A stretch of DNA of 64,000 nucleotides, taken from the NCBI RefSeq assembly GCF_051876855.1, contig NZ_JBJEIH010000024.1, forward strand, positions 11,924 through 75,923, read 5' to 3'. Position numbers and translations under genes: made by a program. A model generated the notes under the pieces. The model did not search any database and was not told the origin of the DNA. It worked only from the letters and a program-made list of their open reading frames with translations. Position 1 is the first letter of the stretch. Each line of letters starts with the position of its first letter. This DNA comes from Bifidobacterium sp. Lineage in GTDB: Bacteria > Actinomycetota > Actinomycetes > Actinomycetales > Bifidobacteriaceae. Positions 17,486-26,635 of this stretch are shown here, piece after piece.

Positions 17486-18850
17486 ATGCTGAATATCATG
17501 GAGGTCCACGAGACCAACAAGATGATCGAGCAGGAGAAGCTCGACGTGCGCACCATCACCATGGGCATCAGCCTGCTTGACTGCGCGGCCGACACCGTGG
17601 ACGAGGTGTGTGACAACATCTACCGCAAGATCACCACGTACGCCAAGGACCTGGTTTCCACAGGCGAGGCCATCGAGCGCGATTACGGCATTCCGATTGT
17701 CAACAAGCGCATCACCGTCACGCCGATTTCGCTGGTCGGAGCCAGTGCTTGCAAGAGCTCCGAGGATTTTGTGCGCATCGCCCATGCGCTTGACAAAGCC
17801 GCGAAAACTGTCGGCGTTGACTTGATTGGCGGATACTCCGCACTTGTTTCCAAATCCATGACGCCCGCCGAGGAGATGCTCATCCGTTCCCTGCCGCAGG
17901 CACTGAGCGAAACCGACATCGTGTGCTCGTCGGTGAACGTCGGCTCCACCAAGACCGGCATTGATATGAACGCGGTCTACCTGCTCGGTCACATCGTCAA
18001 GGATGTCGCCTACGCCACCCGCGAGACCGACAGTGACGGCTGCACCAAGCTTGTGGTGTTCTGCAACGCGCCGGATGACAACCCGTTCATGGCGGGCGGC
18101 TTCCATGGTGTCACCGAAGGCGACGCGGTCATCAATGTCGGTGTTTCGGGCCCGGGTGTGGTCTCCCGCGCGCTTGACGAGGCCAAGGGTAAGGATTTCG
18201 AATTCCTGTGCGAGACCATCAAGCGTACCGCGTTCAAGATCACGCGTGTCGGCCAGCTGGTCGCCCAGGAGGCGTCGCGCCGACTCGGCATCCCGTTCGG
18301 CATCATCGATCTGTCGCTCGCCCCGACCGCCGCAGCCGGCGACTCCGTCGGCGAAGTGCTGGAGAAGTGCGGCCTCGAACAGGTCGGAGCTCCAGGCACG
18401 ACGGCGGCGCTCGCGATGCTCAACGACCAGGTCAAGAAGGGCGGCATCATGGCGTCCTCGTATGTCGGCGGTCTGTCCGGCGCGTTCATTCCGGTGTCCG
18501 AGGACAAGAACATGATCGACGCGGCGGCATCCGGCTGCCTGCGTATCGAAAAGCTTGAGGCGATGACCTGCGTATGCTCGGTCGGCCTTGACATGATTGC
18601 GATTCCGGGCGATACCACGCCGTCCACCATCTCCGGCCTGATCGCCGACGAGGCGGCCATCGGTATGGTCAACCAGAAGACAACCGCCGTGCGCGTGATT
18701 CCGGTCATCGGCAAGGGTGTCGGCGAATCTGCGGAATTCGGCGGTCTTATGGGCTACGCGCCGATCATGCCGGTCAACACCGCCAGCTGCGAGGCCTTCG
18801 TGACCCGTGGCGGCCGCATTCCGGCACCGATCCACTCCTTCAAGAACTAG
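17486..18850 (+). CDS. UPF0210 / DUF711 PFL-like protein
   Basis: [45 protein letters not shown]. Confidence 0.92.
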
Positions 18851-19079: not shown

Positions 19080-19110
19080 AAAGCCCGGAGGCGTTCGCCT
19101 CCGGGCTTTT
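19080..19110. terminator. Probable bidirectional terminator ending the minus-strand immunity genes
   Basis: aaagcccggaggcg ttc gcctccgggctttt. Confidence 0.8.
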
Positions 19111-19143: not shown

Positions 19144-20118
19144 TTATTCGTCTGTTTCCGTTTCGGGTTTGCCTGGTCGGATGGTCGCGGCTCGCGCGAC
19201 CCGCAGGAGCTCGCCCTCCCAGCGTTCCACGGCCCTGGCCCTTCGCCCGGGCCGGGCCGCGTCCAGGCACAGCATCACGGCCAGGCCGCCCGACCGGGGC
19301 GCGAGCAGCGCGACCGTCAGGCACGAGCCGTTTCGCGCCTCCCAGCGGCGCGTGAACGGGCCCTCCGCGCACGGCTCGCGCGAGACCGAGCGCGCGGGCC
19401 CGTTCTCCTCCTCCCAGCGTTCCAGCCACTCGTCCCACGCCTCCCCGCCGTCCGGCCCCTCGTCCCATTCGGCCTCGGCCAGGTACAGGGACGCCACGGG
19501 ATCCCCGTCCCGGCCGGTGTGTTCGAAGGCGAGCAGCACCTCGCCCGCGGCCGACGTGCGCTCCACGAACCCCTCCCCCGGCCCGGGCAGCAGCACCTCG
19601 CCCCCGTCGCACAGTGCGGCGCTCCGCGCAACCGGCTCGCGTCCCCCGGCCCGCCGGCCGTGCGTCCTCTTCCACTCGTCGACCGCCCCGTACGCGTCCA
19701 TCACCGCATCCCCAAGCTCCTCGGCGGACGCGCCGGCAGGCACGGTGCCCTTCCACACCTCGTCGCCCACCAGATCACTGGTACGCGGCGGATATGCGCA
19801 CACCCAGTAGTACCTATCCTCGTAGTAGGTGACGTCCACGAAATCGTTGTTCCGGGCGAACGCCCTCCATGTCTTGTATCTGGTGTCGTGCCGCCAGCAG
19901 TTCTCCTGCTCCTCGAGGTTCAGTTCGAGCGGTCCCGTGCACTCGATGAACGCGAACGCGTCCAGCAATGCCCCGCCCACGTCCTCGGCCGTCACGTCGG
20001 GGCCCTTCAGACTCGCAAAGAACCGATCCGTTAATCGATCAACGCCCCAACACTCCACATAAGGTAGAAGCAGGAGCCTATTCCCCTCCCGGTTCACCGA
20101 TACCGTCATCACACCCAT
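19144..20118 (-). CDS. Orphan immunity paralog 2 (CdiI/DUF1436-like domain plus C-terminal domain)
   Basis: MGVMTVSVNREG... is collinear over its full length with 24810-25775 (RYKTWRAFARNN, PAGASAEELG, identical-looking C-domain); GGAAAGGAAG RBS. Confidence 0.8.
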   Translation of the reverse strand: MGVMTVSVNREGNRLLLLPYVECWGVDRLTDRFFASLKGPDVTAEDVGGALLDAFAFIECTGPLELNLEEQENCWRHDTRYKTWRAFARNNDFVDVTYYEDRYYWVCAYPPRTSDLVGDEVWKGTVPAGASAEELGDAVMDAYGAVDEWKRTHGRRAGGREPVARSAALCDGGEVLLPGPGEGFVERTSAAGEVLLAFEHTGRDGDPVASLYLAEAEWDEGPDGGEAWDEWLERWEEENGPARSVSREPCAEGPFTRRWEARNGSCLTVALLAPRSGGLAVMLCLDAARPGRRARAVERWEGELLRVARAATIRPGKPETETDE

Positions 20119-20661
20119 ATCATCTGCTTCCTTTCCTTCTGGTAATCCTGTACACGATCCGGAGCCTTGTTCACTCCCCGCTCGCCGCGCGCCCTCTTCC
20201 ACTCGTCGATCGCCCCGTACGCGTCCATCACTGCCCCGCCCGAGCTCCCCCGCGGACGCGCCGGCGGGCACGATGGCGTGCCATATGGAGTCTCCCGGAT
20301 CGTCGCCGCCCGACCTTGGCGCATAGGCGCACACCAGATACCTGCCGCCGGGACTGGTGGAGACCCGGACGAAATCGTTGTTCCGGACGAACGCCCGATG
20401 CGTCCTGTACCTCGTGTCATACCTCCAGGAATTCCTCCTTTCCTCGAGGCTCAGCTCGAGCTGGCCCGTGCGCTCGATGAACGCGAACGCGTCCAGCACC
20501 GCCCCGCCTATGTCCCCGGCCGTCATGCCGGGGCCCTTCAGGCTCCTGAAGAATCGGTCCGTCACCCGATTGACGCCCCAGGATTCTACGCATGGGCGAA
20601 TCAAGAAACGACTGCCCTCCTTGTCTATCAACACGAATCTGGGATCGAAGTCCGGTTCCAT
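20109..20661 (-). pseudogene. Orphan immunity paralog 1 (single domain) with a +1 frameshift near its C-terminus
   Basis: MEPDFDPRFVLIDKEG...PAGASAGELG, then an extra G in gggcgggg (20234-20241); the homologous GAVMDAYGAIDEWKR continues in another frame; AAAGGA RBS. Confidence 0.7.
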
Positions 20662-20672
20662 ATGCGGTCCTT

Positions 20673-20797
20673 TCACTTGGCGATCTTGTATACGATGCGT
20701 ATGCCCGTGCCGGCATGCTCCCTCTGGAACGCCCTCAGCGCCTCGGCGATGTCGTTGCCGATCGCAGTGTCCGGGAACACGACCTCAAGCATCTTGG
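20673..20797 (-). pseudogene. Orphan toxin C-terminal remnant (last ~40 codons of the toxin)
   Basis: KMLEVVFPDTAIGNDIAEALRAFQREHAGTGIRIVYKIAK*; inverted copy of 24674-24798 with about 9 mismatches in 125 bp. Confidence 0.88.
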
Positions 20798-21162
20798 TGA
20801 AGGCATTGCCGTGTATCGCCTTCCCCGTCTTCCGCTCCCCGGTATCGGCGGTGGCTACGGGAACGGAAGCCTCATTAGATGCACGATTGCTATCTGTGTT
20901 CAGATTGTCTAATCCCTGTGGCTGGTTGTTGTGTTGTCTCATATTCTGGACGTTTCCTGGTTGGTGGGTCAAAGGTTTGACGGCTGTGGTTCCAATGGTT
21001 CCGTTGGCGTTTTGTGTTCTGCCGTCGTTTGCGTTCCGGGGTGTTTGTCTGTTGTAATCGGTTGCGGGCCGCGGCCGTGCGGGCCCGCAGGGAAGTGAGG
21101 GATGCGTGGGGCGTCCGCGGCGGCGCACGCGCCCATGCGATGAGGTCAAGGGAAGAGGGCCT

Positions 21163-24100
21163 ATGAGAGGTTCCCGTCTGTCATGCGTGCTGTGCGCGCT
21201 GCTTTCGATGTTCATGGTGATGCCCGCCTCGGTGGCGTCCGCAGCCACCGATGGAAGCGGCGGATCAGGCGAAGTGACGATTCATTATTACGACAGTGCC
21301 GGCTGGGCGAAGCCGTTCGCGTACATGTACGGCGACGGCGTGCGCTCCGCGTCCTGGCCGGGCGAACGGATGACGGACGACGGCGACGGCTGGTACAGCG
21401 TCACCGTGGACGCGCCGCATGGATTGCGCGTGCTGTTCAGCGACAACGGAAAATCGCAGCACCCCGGAGCGAACCAACCGGGGTACGAGGTCAATGGCGA
21501 AGCCTGGTTCGTGGGGAGCACGCGGCACGACTCCATGCCGGAAGGCATGAAGGTGCACTTCTACGACTACGCGAACTGGGGCAAGGTCCGCCTGTACTAC
21601 TATTCCGAAGCGGCCAGAGGGCCGACGTGGCCGGGCGAGGCCATGCATGCAGACGGTGACGGATGGTATACCGCGACCATCTTCGGAACGCAGCCCGCCC
21701 GCGTGCTGTTCAACGATGGCGGCTCGAGGCAGACCCCGGCAAGCGGTCAGGAAGGTCATCTGGTAACGGCCGAGGCATGGTGCCGCAACGGCGTATGGAC
21801 CGACACGAGACCCGACGGCGTGCTCGTCATGTTCCATAAGCCATCGGGATGGGGCAGCCCCCGAATCTACTATTACACGTCCGATGCCGACACCGGGCCC
21901 GCCTGGCCGGGCAACGCCATGAAGCACATGGCGGACGGCTGGTATTCCTACACGATAACGAAATACGCCAAGGCGCGTGTGCTGTTCAACGACGGCGGGC
22001 ATCAGGTTCCCGCAAAGAGCGCGCCCGGCTACGAGGCGTCCGGGGTATGCCGTTGGGACGGCGGCGACTGGTCCTGCGGCGATCCGGCCATCGACGGCGA
22101 CGATGACGGCGTGCCCGATGTACTGGGCATGATGCTCGGCGGCGATAGCGACACCGACGGTGACGGACTGCCCGATGCGTTCGAAACCATCAGAACAGGC
22201 ACGGACCCCTCCCGCGCCGATAGCGATGGCGACGGCGTGGCGGATGGCGATGAGGATCCGGATGGCGACGGGCTGACGAACCTGAACGAGCGGGAGATCG
22301 GCACGGACCCGATGGCGGCCGATACGGATGGCGACGGGCTGACCGACGGCGAGGAAACGACGCGCACTCATACCGATCCCCTCAAATCGGACACGGACGG
22401 CGATGGCGTGGACGACCGGCGTGAGATCCAATGGGGCACGGACCCGCTCGTACCTCAGGAGACGTTCGATGTGACGGCACCCGCCGAGGATGTTGGGCAA
22501 GGCGACGTGGACGTGTCCGTGTCGGTGAATCTCCCCGCGAGCCAGGCCGCCACCCTCGACGTGCGCAGATACGACAACCCGTCGTATTTCCCGGACGATA
22601 TGCCGGGGCTCATAGGGGATGCGTACGAGTTCACCGTTGACGGGCAGGTGGGGTCCGCGACGCTGCGCTTCCGCTTCGACGAATCGCTGTTGTCGGATTC
22701 GTCGTTCGACCCGGCCATCTGCTGGTTCGACGAAAAGGAACAGCGGCTCGAGGAACTCGATACCACCGTGACCGGAAACGAGGCCACGGCGACGGTCTCG
22801 CATTTCTCGAAATACGTGCTGGTGAACCGGACCACGTTCCACGACTCGTTCTCATGGGAGGACGTGTGGGGCGACGAACAGTTCAACGCGGTGCAGACGG
22901 TGTTCGTCATAGACGATTCGGGCAGCATGTGGAGCAACGACCGCGGGAAGAAGCGCCTTTCCGTGGCCCGCGACCTTGTAGGGCGCTTCCCGGGGAACAC
23001 CCGCACCGGCGTCGTGCGCTTCGCGGACGGAGCCACGGACCTGACCGGCGGGCTTACGGATGCGCAGACCGCGAAGAACGCCCTGGCGGATGCGAACTTC
23101 CACGATTCGGGCGGCACCAGCATGTACCTGGCCGTACGGCAGGCCCTGAACATGTTCCAGGGCGACGATGATGCGACGCTACGCAACATCATCGTGCTTT
23201 CCGACGGGGAGACTGCCGATACGCGGCTGCATGACAGCGTGGTCGCCGAAGCCAACAAGCGCAAGGTCAAGATCAACGCGGTCGGACTGGGCGGAGGCGG
23301 CCCCGGATCATATTTCGAGCGATGGATGAAACCGCTGGCCAGCCAGACCGGCGGCGAATCCTATCTCGCCCAGGACGCCGATGCGCTGGCCGGCATCTAC
23401 GAGAACATCGGCAAGCTCATCGACATCGAGACCGACAACGACGGCGACGGCATCGCCGACTGGTACGAGGACCATCTCGTGCTGTTCAACGGCGTCTCGC
23501 TCAAACTCGACAAGAACAATCCCGACACGGACGGCGACGGCATCCCCGACGGCGAGGAGATCGACCGCCTCGACTACCGGTACAACGCCGACCGCACCAA
23601 GGTGATTGTCACCGGACGGCTCATCACGAACCCCACACTGGTCGATTCGGACGGTGACGGCATCGCCGACGCGGACGAACCGGACCCGACGACCGACCCG
23701 ATGAATCCCGACACGGACGGCGACGGGTTGACCGACGGCGACGAAGTGCGCCGCAACTTCGACCCGACCTCGCCCGACCCAGACGGCGACGGGCGGCGCG
23801 ACGACAGGGAGCTCGCCGACGACACCAGCCCGTACGTGTACGACAAGGCATGGTACGAGCAGTTCGCCTGCTTCGTGGTCGGAGCGCTTGCGGGGGACTT
23901 CATCACCGATGACGACGACCCCGTCACCCTGGCCGGCCAGATCATCGGGGGCGTCATCCCCACATCCGATGTTCGCGACGCCATAGCGAACGTGAAGCAC
24001 GGCGATTACGCATTCGCCGCGATCAGCGCCGCGGGCATCGTCCCCGCCGCCGGCGACGCGGCCAAGGGCGCGGCGAAGGCCGGCAGATTCATCCTGCGCA

Positions 24101-24798
24101 ACATAGACGACCCGGCGAAGGCCGCAAGACTGCTGGCCATACTGGAGGAGAGCTGCCCGAGCGTGGTCGCCAAGCTCGGCGGCAGCGACGGATTCGTCAA
24201 GGCCGCCGCCAGCTTCTCCCAGACCGGCCACGCAAGACTCACCAAAAAAGAGAAGCAGCATCTCGTCAAGGCCGTCAACAAGGCCGGTCTCGCCAAGCAT
24301 CTGGTCACATCCGGTAGGGACCTGCCCATCGCGGCCACAATCGACACCGGCAAGAACGTCTGGAACGAGCGGTGGCTGAAACGCGGCGACATCATCGACG
24401 AACACCTGAACGGGCATTCCACGGGCCGCGGCCTGGGCCGCACGTTCCCGGTCGCGGACAGGCTGGAGAACAGGGTCCTGGTGAGCACGAAAAGCCTCGA
24501 CCTGGACGCGCGCAGCTACCAGACGCCCGGCAGGCTGAGATCCAGACTCAACAAGTACGTGAAGGATCTCGAGGGATTCGAGGACAAGTATCTGAATAAG
24601 GTGGATAGTGAAGGCCACAGGTACAGAAAGATTGGAAATAGGGATAAACGTCTGTCCGAAAAGGACTATGACTCCAAGATGCTGGAGGTCGTGTTCCCGG
24701 ACACCGCCATCGGCAACGACATCGCCGGGGCGCTGAGGGCGTTCCAGAGGGAGCATGCCGGCACGGGCATACGCATCGTGTACAAGATCGCGAAATAG
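21163..24798 (+). CDS. Secreted polymorphic toxin: signal peptide, 3x CBM26-like, Ca-binding DxDxDG repeats, ZU5-like, vWA, repeats, pre-toxin helices, CdiA-EC869-like nuclease
   Basis: MRGSRLSCVLCALLSMFMVMPASVASA signal; three WPG..M...GWY...RVLF.D repeats; DTDGDG repeats; VSHFSKY; VFVIDDSGSM MIDAS; RGDIIDEHL..FPVAD..STKSLDL..SY..YVKDL toxin signature. Confidence 0.8.
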   Translation: MRGSRLSCVLCALLSMFMVMPASVASAATDGSGGSGEVTIHYYDSAGWAKPFAYMYGDGVRSASWPGERMTDDGDGWYSVTVDAPHGLRVLFSDNGKSQHPGANQPGYEVNGEAWFVGSTRHDSMPEGMKVHFYDYANWGKVRLYYYSEAARGPTWPGEAMHADGDGWYTATIFGTQPARVLFNDGGSRQTPASGQEGHLVTAEAWCRNGVWTDTRPDGVLVMFHKPSGWGSPRIYYYTSDADTGPAWPGNAMKHMADGWYSYTITKYAKARVLFNDGGHQVPAKSAPGYEASGVCRWDGGDWSCGDPAIDGDDDGVPDVLGMMLGGDSDTDGDGLPDAFETIRTGTDPSRADSDGDGVADGDEDPDGDGLTNLNEREIGTDPMAADTDGDGLTDGEETTRTHTDPLKSDTDGDGVDDRREIQWGTDPLVPQETFDVTAPAEDVGQGDVDVSVSVNLPASQAATLDVRRYDNPSYFPDDMPGLIGDAYEFTVDGQVGSATLRFRFDESLLSDSSFDPAICWFDEKEQRLEELDTTVTGNEATATVSHFSKYVLVNRTTFHDSFSWEDVWGDEQFNAVQTVFVIDDSGSMWSNDRGKKRLSVARDLVGRFPGNTRTGVVRFADGATDLTGGLTDAQTAKNALADANFHDSGGTSMYLAVRQALNMFQGDDDATLRNIIVLSDGETADTRLHDSVVAEANKRKVKINAVGLGGGGPGSYFERWMKPLASQTGGESYLAQDADALAGIYENIGKLIDIETDNDGDGIADWYEDHLVLFNGVSLKLDKNNPDTDGDGIPDGEEIDRLDYRYNADRTKVIVTGRLITNPTLVDSDGDGIADADEPDPTTDPMNPDTDGDGLTDGDEVRRNFDPTSPDPDGDGRRDDRELADDTSPYVYDKAWYEQFACFVVGALAGDFITDDDDPVTLAGQIIGGVIPTSDVRDAIANVKHGDYAFAAISAAGIVPAAGDAAKGAAKAGRFILRNIDDPAKAARLLAILEESCPSVVAKLGGSDGFVKAAASFSQTGHARLTKKEKQHLVKAVNKAGLAKHLVTSGRDLPIAATIDTGKNVWNERWLKRGDIIDEHLNGHSTGRGLGRTFPVADRLENRVLVSTKSLDLDARSYQTPGRLRSRLNKYVKDLEGFEDKYLNKVDSEGHRYRKIGNRDKRLSEKDYDSKMLEVVFPDTAIGNDIAGALRAFQREHAGTGIRIVYKIAK

Positions 24799-24809
24799 GA
24801 GGAAAATAC

Positions 24810-25775
24810 ATGAGCCAGATAAGGATAGTCTCCATAAACAGGGAGAAGGACAGGTTCCTGGTCTGCCCGTTCGTGATGAGCTGGGGCATCAATCGGGTGA
24901 CGGACCGGTTCTTTCGGAGTCTGAAGGGCCCCGGCGTGACGGCCGGGGATGTGGGCGTGGCGCTGCTGGACTCGTTCGCGTTCATCGAGCGCACGGGCCC
25001 GCTCGAGCTGAGCCTCGAGGAGCAGGAGAACTTCTGGCGGCACGACACCAGATACAGGACGTATCGGGCGTTCGTCCGGAACAACGACCTCGTCGAGGTC
25101 ACCAACTACAAGGACAAGGAATATTGGGTGTACGCATATCCGCCAAGAATCGGCGACGATTGGGACGACGAGGTGTGGCGGGGCACCGTGCCTGCCGGCG
25201 CGTCCGCCGAGGAGCTCGGACAGGCGGTGCTGGACGCGTACGCGGCCATCGACGAGTGGAAGAGAACGCACGGCCGGAGGCCCGCGCCCCGCGTGCCGGT
25301 TGCGCGGAGCGCGGGACTGTGCGACGGGGGCGAGGTGGTCATGCCCGGTCCGGGAGAGGGGTTCGCGGAGCGCACGTCGGCCGCGGGCGAGGTGCTGCTC
25401 GCCTTCGAACGGACCGGACGGGGCGGGGATCCCGTGGCGTCCCTGTACCTGGCCGAGGCGGAGTGGGACGCGGAGGCGGACGGCAGGGAGGCGTGGGACG
25501 AGTGGCTGGAGCGCTGGGAGGGGGATAACGGGCCCGCGCGCTCGGTCTCGCGCGAGCCGTGCGGGGAGGGCCCGTTCACCCGCCGCTGGGAGGCGCGCAA
25601 CGGCTCGTGTCTGACGGTCGCGCTGCTCGCGCCCCGGCCGGACGGCCTGGCCGTCATGCTGTGCCTGGACGCGGCCCGGCCCGGGCGTCGTCCCAAGGCC
25701 GTGGGGCGCTGGGAGGAAGAGCTCCATCGGATCGCACGCGCCGCGACCATCCGACCAGGCAAAACGGAATCTTGA
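24810..25775 (+). CDS. Cognate immunity protein (CdiI/DUF1436-like plus second domain)
   Basis: 11 bp after the toxin stop with AGGAGG RBS; DVGVALLDSF, YRTYRAFVRNN and SAEELGQAVLDA resemble the EC869-type CdiI pattern. Confidence 0.75.
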   Translation: MSQIRIVSINREKDRFLVCPFVMSWGINRVTDRFFRSLKGPGVTAGDVGVALLDSFAFIERTGPLELSLEEQENFWRHDTRYRTYRAFVRNNDLVEVTNYKDKEYWVYAYPPRIGDDWDDEVWRGTVPAGASAEELGQAVLDAYAAIDEWKRTHGRRPAPRVPVARSAGLCDGGEVVMPGPGEGFAERTSAAGEVLLAFERTGRGGDPVASLYLAEAEWDAEADGREAWDEWLERWEGDNGPARSVSREPCGEGPFTRRWEARNGSCLTVALLAPRPDGLAVMLCLDAARPGRRPKAVGRWEEELHRIARAATIRPGKTES

Positions 25776-25848: not shown

Positions 25849-25967
25849 GGAGCATAAGGAATCCACTGGGCTTCTGCGTCACGCTCCGTTTGCAATTATT
25901 GACCGGCCTTGCGGCCGGACGGTCATATCTCCTCGTTCGGCACTGTCGTGCCTCTCTCGGCGGGGCT

Positions 25968-25994
25968 ACGTAGAAGCCCACCGGGCTTCTACGT
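25968..25994 (-). terminator. Hairpin directly after the trmL stop
   Basis: acgtagaagccc acc gggcttctacgt. Confidence 0.7.
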
Positions 25995-26635
25995 CACGCC
26001 CCGCCCTTGAAGCCCATTTGGCGCCAGGCTTCGTAGATGGCGATGGAAGCACAGTTGGTAAGGTTCAAGCTGCGCAGGCTCGGGCGCATCGGCAGACGCA
26101 CCTGCTCAGCCACATGCGGGCCGGCCATAATGTCCATCGGATCGGGAATATTGCCCGGTTCCGGGCCGAACAGCAGAATGTCGGTCGGCTTGTATTCGAT
26201 GTCGGTGTACAACTTGGTGGCGTGCGCGGTGAAGGCGATGATGCGCGAATCGGGCATCGATTCCACCAGATCCTCGAAATTCGGGTGCAGCACCACATGT
26301 GCCATGTCGTGGTAGTCAAGCCCCGCGCGGCGCAGCTTGGTGTCGCGTAGATTGAAGCCCAAGGGCTCCACCAAGTGCAGGATTGTGCCGGTTACGGCGC
26401 ACAGGCGGATTGCGGAACCCGTGTTGCCCGGAATGCGTGGGGAGTAGTAGCACAGATGCGGCGTGGAGGTTTCCGTTTTGGCCGCATCCTTCGCGCTCAG
26501 CATGGCGTCCACCACGGAAATCGGGTTGCCGTGCGCGTCGGTCACCAGCTCGTCCGGCCCGTAATTGGACTTGCGGTACCCGTATTCGAACATCTTTTCG
26601 ACATGATCCTCGGGATTTGCTGCTTCGTTAGTCAT
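25994..26635 (-). CDS. trmL: tRNA (cytidine/uridine-34-2'-O)-methyltransferase, SPOUT family
   Basis: PRIPGNTG, LHLVEPLGF, LRRAGLDY, LFGPE, RSLNL. Confidence 0.92.
   Translation of the reverse strand: MTNEAANPEDHVEKMFEYGYRKSNYGPDELVTDAHGNPISVVDAMLSAKDAAKTETSTPHLCYYSPRIPGNTGSAIRLCAVTGTILHLVEPLGFNLRDTKLRRAGLDYHDMAHVVLHPNFEDLVESMPDSRIIAFTAHATKLYTDIEYKPTDILLFGPEPGNIPDPMDIMAGPHVAEQVRLPMRPSLRSLNLTNCASIAIYEAWRQMGFKGGA

Follow-up and report, generated by a model that had tools for sequence, protein, structure and literature searches.

In a 64,000-nucleotide stretch of a Bifidobacterium contig (NZ_JBJEIH010000024.1; hereafter the window), we found a locus that very probably encodes a polymorphic toxin and its immunity protein. 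The toxin gene, P0001, joins three starch-binding CBM26 modules to a C-terminal nuclease tip, and the next gene, P0002, encodes a partner with the fold of the immunity protein CdiI. For the locus as a whole we favor, with moderate confidence, a model in which P0001 is a Sec-exported DNase toxin that would be parked on starch, act against Gram-positive neighbors and be neutralized by its CdiI-fold partner. From a signal-like N-terminus, P0001 runs through three CBM26 modules, a TSP3 block, a ZU5-like domain, a vWA domain, a second TSP3 block and a helical region to the nuclease tip:

21163–24798, + strand: polymorphic toxin gene P0001, 1,211 aa
21163–21243, + strand: predicted Sec signal peptide, hydrophobic residues 6–24, with an inferred A-x-A end
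21271–22086, + strand: three CBM26 modules (Pfam E 6.8e-57, 3 stretches), Y-x-Y...W-P-G in each
22093–22458, + strand: first acidic TSP3 (DxDxDG) block, by Pfam and motif count
22459–22872, + strand: family-defining ZU5-like domain with an HFS motif, by HHalign to bacterial ZU5
22894–23412, + strand: vWA domain with a metal-ion-dependent adhesion site (MIDAS), candidate target-binding module
23428–23817, + strand: second TSP3 block, by Pfam and motif count
23845–24312, + strand: Gly/Ala-rich helical pre-toxin region, helical in the model, predicted translocation aid
24319–24795, + strand: EC869-like PD-(D/E)XK nuclease tip with D1079, D1099, S1108, K1110 and a variable hairpin
24810–25775, + strand: predicted cognate immunity gene P0002, 321 aa, two domains

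The original prediction, made by a model from the letters alone, had described a basic C-terminus of the EC869-like PD-(D/E)XK type. The tip is indeed basic (isoelectric point [pI] 9.66), with FPVAD at residue 1095, STKSLDL at 1108 and YVKDL at 1132. Its assignment to the EC869-like nucleases holds by fold and by the D/S/K pattern but not by Pfam score: PF21111 (CDI_toxin_EC869_like) reaches 19.2 bits with the whole protein and 24.4 with the tip alone, below the cut-off of 27 that is passed by the homologues P0097 (46.7), P0247 (40.3), P0240 (28.2) and P0015 (27.2). Searching the PDB with the tip sequence yielded nothing (best E 0.29), and a profile search was swamped by vWA. By contrast, a model of residues 882–1211, built from 17 sequences (predicted local distance difference test score [pLDDT] 76.8; near 90 over most of the tip, poor for the initial ~80 residues), matched 4G6U_A, the CdiA-CT of EC869, in Foldseek at E 1.6e-5 and 4ZQU_A (YPIII) at E 1.1e-3, the next match standing at 0.07. 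A wide fold search likewise placed 4G6U_A first (Z 15.5, root-mean-square deviation 2.8, 143 residues aligned), followed by matches at 11.5 and 7.8. None of the 17 aligned tips departs from D1099, S1108 or K1110, and all have D or E at position 1079. The available text of PMC9086364 describes 4G6U as a Zn-dependent DNase with active-site residues E177, D198, S209 and K211, to which, judged by spacing, the four tip residues are inferred to be equivalent.

The partner had been described as a small, tightly coupled gene of the DUF1436 CdiI type. The coupling is tight, the ATG of P0002 (24810) lying 11 nt past the toxin stop behind an AGGAGG, but at 321 aa and two domains the protein is not small. 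P0002 has no Pfam match above cut-off, CdiI (PF07262/DUF1436) scoring E 0.098 and 13 bits versus 25; tandem homologues of P0002 carry the PF07262 label. In a model built from 13 sequences (pLDDT 81.6), residues 1–146 have the CdiI fold (4G6U_B, Z 13.8; 4ZQW_B, E 5.1e-6), so the assignment stands by fold and not by Pfam score, and the top five Foldseek matches of P0002 are four CdiI structures of the EC869-type family and NMB0488. Residues ~160–316 match the PsbP/Mog1 fold. This PsbP/Mog1 (DcrB-like) domain, at 25275–25772, is kept in all aligned Lachnospiraceae-type partners and may serve as a chaperone or as a second binding site. Because the sequence scores fall below Pfam cut-offs, the tip and partner assignments rest on fold searches; the two were matched independently, and therefore both chains of one solved complex (4G6U) are represented. 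Among the profiles that the original prediction expected, CBM26, TSP3_bac and VWA were found above cut-off, whereas CDI_toxin_EC869-like and DUF1436 lay below theirs and appear as fold matches only.

The pairing of tip and partner recurs elsewhere. We examined 31 genome loci (L021–L051 of 80; the other 49 are short, weak matches, mostly vWA-only) and 31 metagenome loci. A P0002 homologue (22–59%) comes next in 6/6 genome loci that have an EC869-like tip and downstream DNA. An EC869-like tip is present in 25 of the metagenome loci, 24 of them with downstream DNA, and a P0002 homologue follows in 24/24, bearing out the predicted cognate pairing; the remaining loci comprise four with an AHH tip and a different next gene and two that are truncated. 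Immunity to EC869 toxin works by β-augmentation, its target being a hairpin set into the core of the nuclease, according to the available text of PMC9086364. The tip model has a strand pair at about 1153–1165. When 10 near-identical metagenome copies are compared, 17 of the 30 sites in the hairpin (~1152–1181) vary, against 1–10 in each of the other ten 30-residue blocks. The hairpin forms three alleles among these copies and is predicted to be the immunity-binding element.

We then placed P0001 in its family. A whole-protein search gave 3,518 matches, with the middle domain common to 99 of the 120 matches listed, and a profile of that domain retrieved 1,913 clusters at E 0.001, 1,028 at 1e-10 and 228 at 1e-30, not all checked as toxins. 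With the best 150 of the 1,913 taken, the family set holds 229 members, 175 of at least 900 aa and 171 of these with a scorable tail. The 171 tails fall into 20 tip clusters, so the same chassis does carry different C-termini, as had been anticipated. In a Pfam scan of 66 family proteins (the rest were labeled by local profiles), the tips comprised EC869-like, AHH, Ntox35, XOO_2897 deaminase, Lipase_3, Mbeg1-like and PGAP1-like domains, together with phage lysozyme, M23 peptidase, DUF4474 and DUF3289; lipase-like clusters have 31, 30 and 9 members. Clusters C4 and C6–C10 (P0046, P0054, P0023, P0025, P0065, P0043), with 4–14 members each, have no confident Pfam name and are candidate new toxin domains.

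In a FastTree of the core (155 rows; 16/171 were omitted for want of a matching vWA span) we counted 74 tip changes and 52 anchor changes, and CBM26 joins the core in three places even when the count is restricted to starred branches. The bifidobacterial gene itself is a mosaic: its CBMs share 45–51% identity with CBM26x4 blocks found in relatives, yet those relatives' middle and vWA domains reach only 24–42%, while CBM2-type cores reach 35–57% identity to its core. At L023:3-2318 (titled Collinsella), the middle and vWA domains are 96% identical and the C-terminus looks phage-tail-like by eye, reflecting either a chimeric assembly or a real fusion.

The locus thus shows a constant chassis with variable tips and a cognate immunity gene directly downstream that changes with the tip, traits of polymorphic toxins; also present are extra immunity genes (two paralogues and a 41-codon copy of the toxin tail, described below) and, in the complete genome G123, immunity without toxin. 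An amylase or adhesin with a chance tail was rejected, since the tip fold, the gene pairing and the polymorphism speak against it.

The helical region, where the motifs GVIPTSDVRD (residue 930) and GIVPAAGDAAK (958) were confirmed, tracks particular tips. It is present in 26/175 members: all 21 with EC869 tips, both with AHH, those with deaminase and Ntox35 tips and a single unclassified member, and 0 of the other 145; no hydrolase-tip member carries it. Its motifs presumably resemble PT-TG, and PT-TG membership by Pfam was rejected, PF14449 giving no profile match to 23806–24342 or among the homologues scanned. Next genes differ as well. In the 18 that we checked, a hydrophobic segment (at least 2.1) is encoded behind hydrolase-type or unclassified tips in 10/10 cases, and the EC869 partners are at most 1.63 in 6/6. 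As read from the sequences, this apparent matching of compartment among tips, helical region and partners is as expected for antibacterial toxins and their immunity proteins.

An alternative is that P0001 is an extracellular enzyme platform whose nuclease clears or harvests DNA in starch biofilm, with the partner guarding the producer before export. Hydrolases are most of the family's tips, and the available text of PMC3482391 proposes that ZU5 surface proteins with adhesion modules and lipases remodel extracellular polymers; but deaminase, Ntox35 and AHH tips need an intracellular target and are the ones the helical region tracks, and neither a hypervariable hairpin nor immunity genes that are duplicated, mosaic and retained after toxin loss sit well with it, so that we think it very unlikely. 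Several observations do weigh against the toxin–immunity pairing: the pairing counts include many near-copies (7 of one gene), 2/10 membrane-type next genes (L031, L032) lie on the opposite strand, L037 and L038 have no obvious small partner, and covariation of hairpin and immunity is imperfect, L147 and L153 departing from it. Elsewhere, L026:2494-11810 holds two tandem family members with different tips (one EC869-like, the other by eye resembling a restriction endonuclease and bearing a glycine-rich tail); a partner of its own follows each, and there is one further immunity copy. At L034:9468-11877 and L035:9442-10751, non-nuclease tips are followed by series of small paralogous genes of the membrane type, possible orphan immunity arrays.

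At the other end of the protein, three repeats of ~90 aa, predicted from the start to be CBM26, were assigned to that family by Pfam (190 bits against a cut-off of 28.1), with start-to-start spacings of 273 and 276 nt. The block matches PDB 2C3G (E 5.2e-11) and Ruminococcus bromii Amy10 (E 1.8e-12), and the aromatic platform Y-x-Y...W is intact in 3/3 repeats, the same pattern as the binding residues Y53/Y55/W63 of RbCBM26 in the available text of a preprint (10.1101/2022.11.20.514607). Family membership and these intact aromatics predict α-glucan binding. The other predicted features of the N-terminal part were recovered too: a hydrophobic stretch at residues 6–24 consistent with a Sec signal, 13 DxDxDG motifs in two blocks (TSP3_bac, E 5e-20), and a vWA domain at residues 580–747 (Pfam E 1.9e-12) with an intact MIDAS (D584-x-S586-x-S588). 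As originally noted, P0001 has no glycoside hydrolase in the Pfam scan and no LPxTG in the motif check; nor was there a C-terminal transmembrane segment or, in the Pfam scan, a wall-binding domain; an NCBIfam scan gave only sub-threshold TSP3, vWA and CBM matches. A hydrophobic N-terminal stretch is found in 154/175 full-length family members. In P0053, P0056, P0057, P0062, P0067 and P0096, a CxxC...CxxC zinc-ribbon-like start replaces the signal peptide; these are probably membrane-anchored versions.

What the CBM26 modules do is best judged from what relatives carry in their place. CBM26 is present in 10 of the 175 long members, CBM2 in 32 and SLH in 24; other N-termini are Listeria-Bacteroides repeats, cohesin, CWB2, copper-amine-oxidase-N, ricin-type lectin and RTX repeats. 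We read CBM26 as a parking module because relatives fill its slot with wall anchors, cohesin or cellulose binders, and because that slot precedes the predicted cut while a separate slot swaps vWA for a lectin (C-type, in P0028, P0030 and P0071). The same toxin–immunity pair could instead use CBM26 as a receptor arm for α-glucan on or around the target cell, much as Streptomyces umbrella lectins do. CBM26 binds short malto-oligosaccharides in the literature available, umbrella particles recognize surface glycans of competitors according to the available text of PMC13460014, and CBM26 joined the core at least three times. Yet the slot in relatives holds positioning modules (SLH, CWB2, cohesin, copper-amine-oxidase-N, CBM2), CBM26 sits before the predicted cleavage site, and it is the vWA slot that is exchanged for the lectin, which makes a receptor arm rather unlikely. 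Retention of the toxin by its producer, on its own capsule or through a granule bridging both cells, with killing by contact only as in wall-displayed Gram-positive CDI-like toxins, would fit the SLH, CWB2 and cohesin members and TSP3 spacers long enough to serve as a stalk; we consider it distinctly unlikely, as LPxTG and a C-terminal transmembrane segment are absent in 175/175 members and P0001 has no wall-binding domain.

We infer that starch docking is the delivery strategy favored over these rivals. Three points count against it: CBM26 is a minority anchor (10/175); many relatives carry SLH or CWB2, so tethering to the cell, not to food, may be the family default; and since CBM74, not RbCBM26, drives granule binding in Sas6 (available text of the preprint above), CBM26 alone may bind granules weakly.

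The domain that defines the family lies between anchor and tip; the original prediction overlooked it, along with the exchange of anchors across the family and the inverted arrays of immunity genes. It spans residues 433–570 and is closed by H547-F548-S549 (22801–22809), a candidate autoproteolysis site; HFS is found in 212/229 family members and E/D/M-F-S in six, with no motif called in 11. HHalign against 12 actinobacterial Pfam-ZU5 domains gave 58%, and 73–84% with the 229-sequence alignment (E 3e-5 to 8e-6, ~100 columns, HFS in register on the last strand), with reversed and 30 shuffled controls at or below 1.7%. ZU5 has been named as a processing autopeptidase of polymorphic toxins (Zhang 2012, PMC3482391), and ZU5-type cleavage falls before a serine and leaves the fragments associated (PMC3334886), as far as the available text of each goes. 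We regard self-cleavage at F548/S549 as reasonably probable. The ZU5 link is moderate: the middle domain has no match in Pfam or PDB sequence searches, and in the 12-sequence template 10 sequences have no H/x-F-S and only one has HFS itself. Counting against the delivery model as a whole, the fragment after the predicted cut is large (663 aa) and acidic (pI 4.9), so that a second cut or a dedicated receptor would be needed; the 87%-complete genome yielded no S8 protease, nor is a second protease evident. An Atlas feature search with the middle domain returned only unnamed clusters, at or below 0.83 and within chance range.

Taken together, these features suggest the following sequence of events. 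The toxin would be exported by Sec, as its signal-like N-terminus and its lack of any wall anchor suggest, and its CBM26 modules would park it on starch; because the host encodes a secreted-type amylase with related repeats, it would gather where its producer feeds. The ZU5-like domain would cleave itself at F548/S549, and the halves, by analogy with PIDD and NLRP1, would stay paired until a pull separates them, with the anchor left behind on the granule. The vWA domain, whose slot a lectin takes in some relatives, may engage the target cell. The helical region, judging from its co-occurrence pattern, may then carry the basic tip through the membrane, where the tip would degrade DNA unless immunity blocks it by β-augmentation at the variable hairpin. 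Specificities would be shuffled as the inverted immunity arrays recombine with each other.

More tentatively, the family may constitute a substrate-addressed class whose members are secreted, parked on a dietary polymer, such as starch by CBM26 or cellulose by CBM2, or on the producer wall, self-cleaved at the ZU5-like domain into a cocked, non-covalent pair and relieved of the tip under vWA guidance; they would fire a nuclease, deaminase, lipase or cell-wall hydrolase at non-immune cells attempting to settle on that particle. We take this broader reading seriously without expecting it to hold in full. Bait for starch-engulfing eukaryotes such as gut ciliates, in which the nuclease or lipase would act within the grazer after granule uptake, is another conceivable use. 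Ciliates engulf starch, pig and chicken gut metagenomes contain the DNA, and both vWA and C-type lectin domains are able to attach to eukaryotic surfaces, but diversified and orphan immunity genes make sense only with bacterial targets, and we judge this reading extremely improbable.

Around the toxin gene lies a set of inverted repeats and further immunity genes:

24674–24803, + strand: right arm of a 130-nt inverted repeat (toxin tail), 92% complementary to 20668–20797
20668–20797, − strand: left arm, repeating the final 41 toxin codons in inverted orientation, 95% identical in amino acids
20109–20661, − strand: immunity paralogue A, CdiI domain only (66%), with a frameshift near its end that makes it read into paralogue B
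19144–20118, − strand: two-domain immunity paralogue B, sharing 78% identity with P0002
25797–25848: perfect 21-bp hairpin 3' of the immunity gene, possible terminator
19080–19109: 13-bp hairpin 3' of paralogue B, possible terminator

Paralogue B and P0002 form a 942-nt inverted repeat (86%), and the A–B fusion is also found in P0147. Immunity alleles are mosaics, and the same inverted upstream immunity copy is present in Pseudoscardovia suis (L022). In G189, the toxin (with a frameshift near residue 280–295) reads into the paralogue array and the P0002 type lies upstream; in G123, it is a 119-codon stub toward the DUF711 side with both immunity arrays kept. The toxin points toward DUF711, the reverse of its direction in the window, in seven metagenome loci that have one clear flank; another metagenome locus, bordered by DUF711 at either end, is probably a misassembly. 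Flanked by inverted repeats of tail and immunity sequence, the toxin segment (19144–25775; G189 L119, G123 L120, L145–L158) takes at least three arrangements; it may be invertible, a cassette by which immunity alleles are reshuffled. Contigs break at the tail repeat in 4/4 DNA runs. An assembly artifact was ruled out, as the gene has 95% DNA identity across its length in two other genomes (G065 and G070) and a single contig spans the whole toxin gene in 4/4 runs.

A promoter scan of the locus gave 2 sites versus 0.9 expected, which is not significant. One promoter-like site (20943–20972, − strand), within the flippable segment and not above chance, points at the upstream immunity array; with it, both immunity arrays might be expressed in either orientation. 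RNA runs containing the stretch number six, from four studies. The toxin is covered by contigs in 4/4 RNA runs examined, a weak hint given possible DNA carry-over, and the upstream non-coding bin is uncovered in two of these four.

The host genome is 2.08 Mb (87% complete), and those of its homologues that carry names are bifidobacterial. The element is flanked on one side by a DUF711 gene (17486–18850) and on the other by genes that we take, from their translations, to be trmL-like, then mutY-like and rpoB-like. A duplicated short stretch at 25863–26003, downstream of the trmL-like gene, differs among strains. Occurrence in the genus is patchy, with the toxin's defining domain in 4/151 genomes and the immunity gene in 7/151, strongly in five. 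DNA of the stretch is present in pig and chicken gut metagenome runs; for some matching contigs the title names a human gut metagenome. Starch use by the host is indicated by 16 α-amylase-family matches in the genome; a secreted-type amylase on contig C26 carries repeats related to the toxin's CBM26 repeats.

How primary colonizers of resistant starch and fiber defend particles against cross-feeders and rivals is an open question, and these organisms shape gut fermentation. If the model is right, a toxin addressed to food particles would link diet directly to interbacterial killing, and substrate-addressed delivery would stand apart from cell-addressed and needle-delivered toxins. Family members go by the name of "starch-binding", "cellulose binding" or "VWA domain" protein in their sources, and would on that account be classed with carbohydrate-utilization genes. 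Many unannotated tip types can be drawn from the family, whose natural modularity also suits it as a chassis for polysaccharide-targeted antibacterials directed at gut bacteria.

Among known delivery systems, contact-dependent inhibition (CDI; CdiBAI) was rejected, as the original prediction had anticipated: neither the protein nor adjoining genes have CdiB or FHA domains or FHA repeats. An LXG/WXG effector of type VII secretion (T7SS) was likewise rejected, with no LXG/WXG Pfam match and a hydrophobic N-terminus. The claim that the toxin works without a T7SS holds for the protein and locus, which have no LXG/WXG domain and no adjacent secretion genes, but not for the genome at large, where a lone WXG100 gene and two FtsK-domain genes occur. 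The WXG100 gene (G000:C83:26480-26734) adjoins a groEL-like gene, with no secretion cluster evident. Papers in the following comparisons marked with an asterisk after the accession are cited for their available text. P0001 resembles the ABP/S8-PTS toxins (PMC13460014*, PMC13556192*), Sec-type secreted polymorphic toxins of Bacillota and Actinomycetota with a basic tip, cytoplasmic immunity and proteolytic activation, but differs in its anchor, TSP3, vWA and predicted cis-acting ZU5-like site, and in the lipase and cell-wall tips of its family. Membership was rejected, with no S8 protease adjoining the locus or in the 87%-complete genome. A term search of PMC12582261*, cited beside this comparison with CDI, T7SS and ABP, gave 0 matches.

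Like the toxins of Zhang 2012 (PMC3482391*), P0001 has a ZU5-type autopeptidase candidate upstream of a nuclease tip, and related ZU5 domains occur there in surface proteins with adhesion modules and lipases; those toxins, unlike P0001, have RHS repeats with SpvB/TcdB-TcaC export, and the main text has 0 mentions of vWA, SLH, thrombospondin or carbohydrate-binding. The nearest records are in groups 18, 19 and 26 of the Pandoomain PT-TG catalogue of 2026 (PMC13483458*). Two of its rows look like family members by architecture, WP_013657215.1 (CBM2x2-TSP3x6-PT-TG) and WP_305993459.1 (cohesin-TSP3-VWA-TSP3x2-PT-TG), and its Bacillus SLHx3-PT-TG proteins share the anchor-plus-tip logic. These relatives are supplementary table rows only, with no discussion, mechanism or test in the available text; the available supplement has no CBM26 or PF21111 row, and the main text 0 mentions of VWA, TSP3 or CBM. 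The original claim that no such system has been described therefore nearly holds, the exception being those two relatives with CBM2 and cohesin anchors. A literature search, with most subscription journals outside its reach, found no account of the chassis or of a starch-binding toxin, and the delivery chassis is essentially undescribed. The lipocone paper, in its available text, gives a different, glucan-binding (GbpC) toxin architecture, a conceptual precedent for polysaccharide anchoring.

The nearest fold match remains the CdiA-CT/CdiI o11 pair of E. coli EC869 (TA271; PDB 4G6U), with its YPIII counterpart (4ZQU; Pfam PF21111/PF07262). Our pair shares both predicted folds, the D-S-K pattern and the hairpin inserted in the nuclease core, but has 13–18% identity, a Gram-positive host and an extra PsbP/Mog1 domain on the partner. 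At its N-terminus, P0001 shares the Tyr-x-Tyr/Trp platform of CBM26 amylases and starch adherence proteins (BhCBM26, 2C3G; R. bromii Amy10, Amy16 and Sas6), yet it has no glycoside hydrolase, dockerin or CBM74 and ends in a nuclease. Closest in strategy are the Streptomyces umbrella toxins (PMC11062931*), which are also diffusible Gram-positive polymorphic toxins aimed through glycan binding; they are multi-protein and bind a glycan of the target, whereas P0001 is a single chain whose binder matches a dietary polymer.

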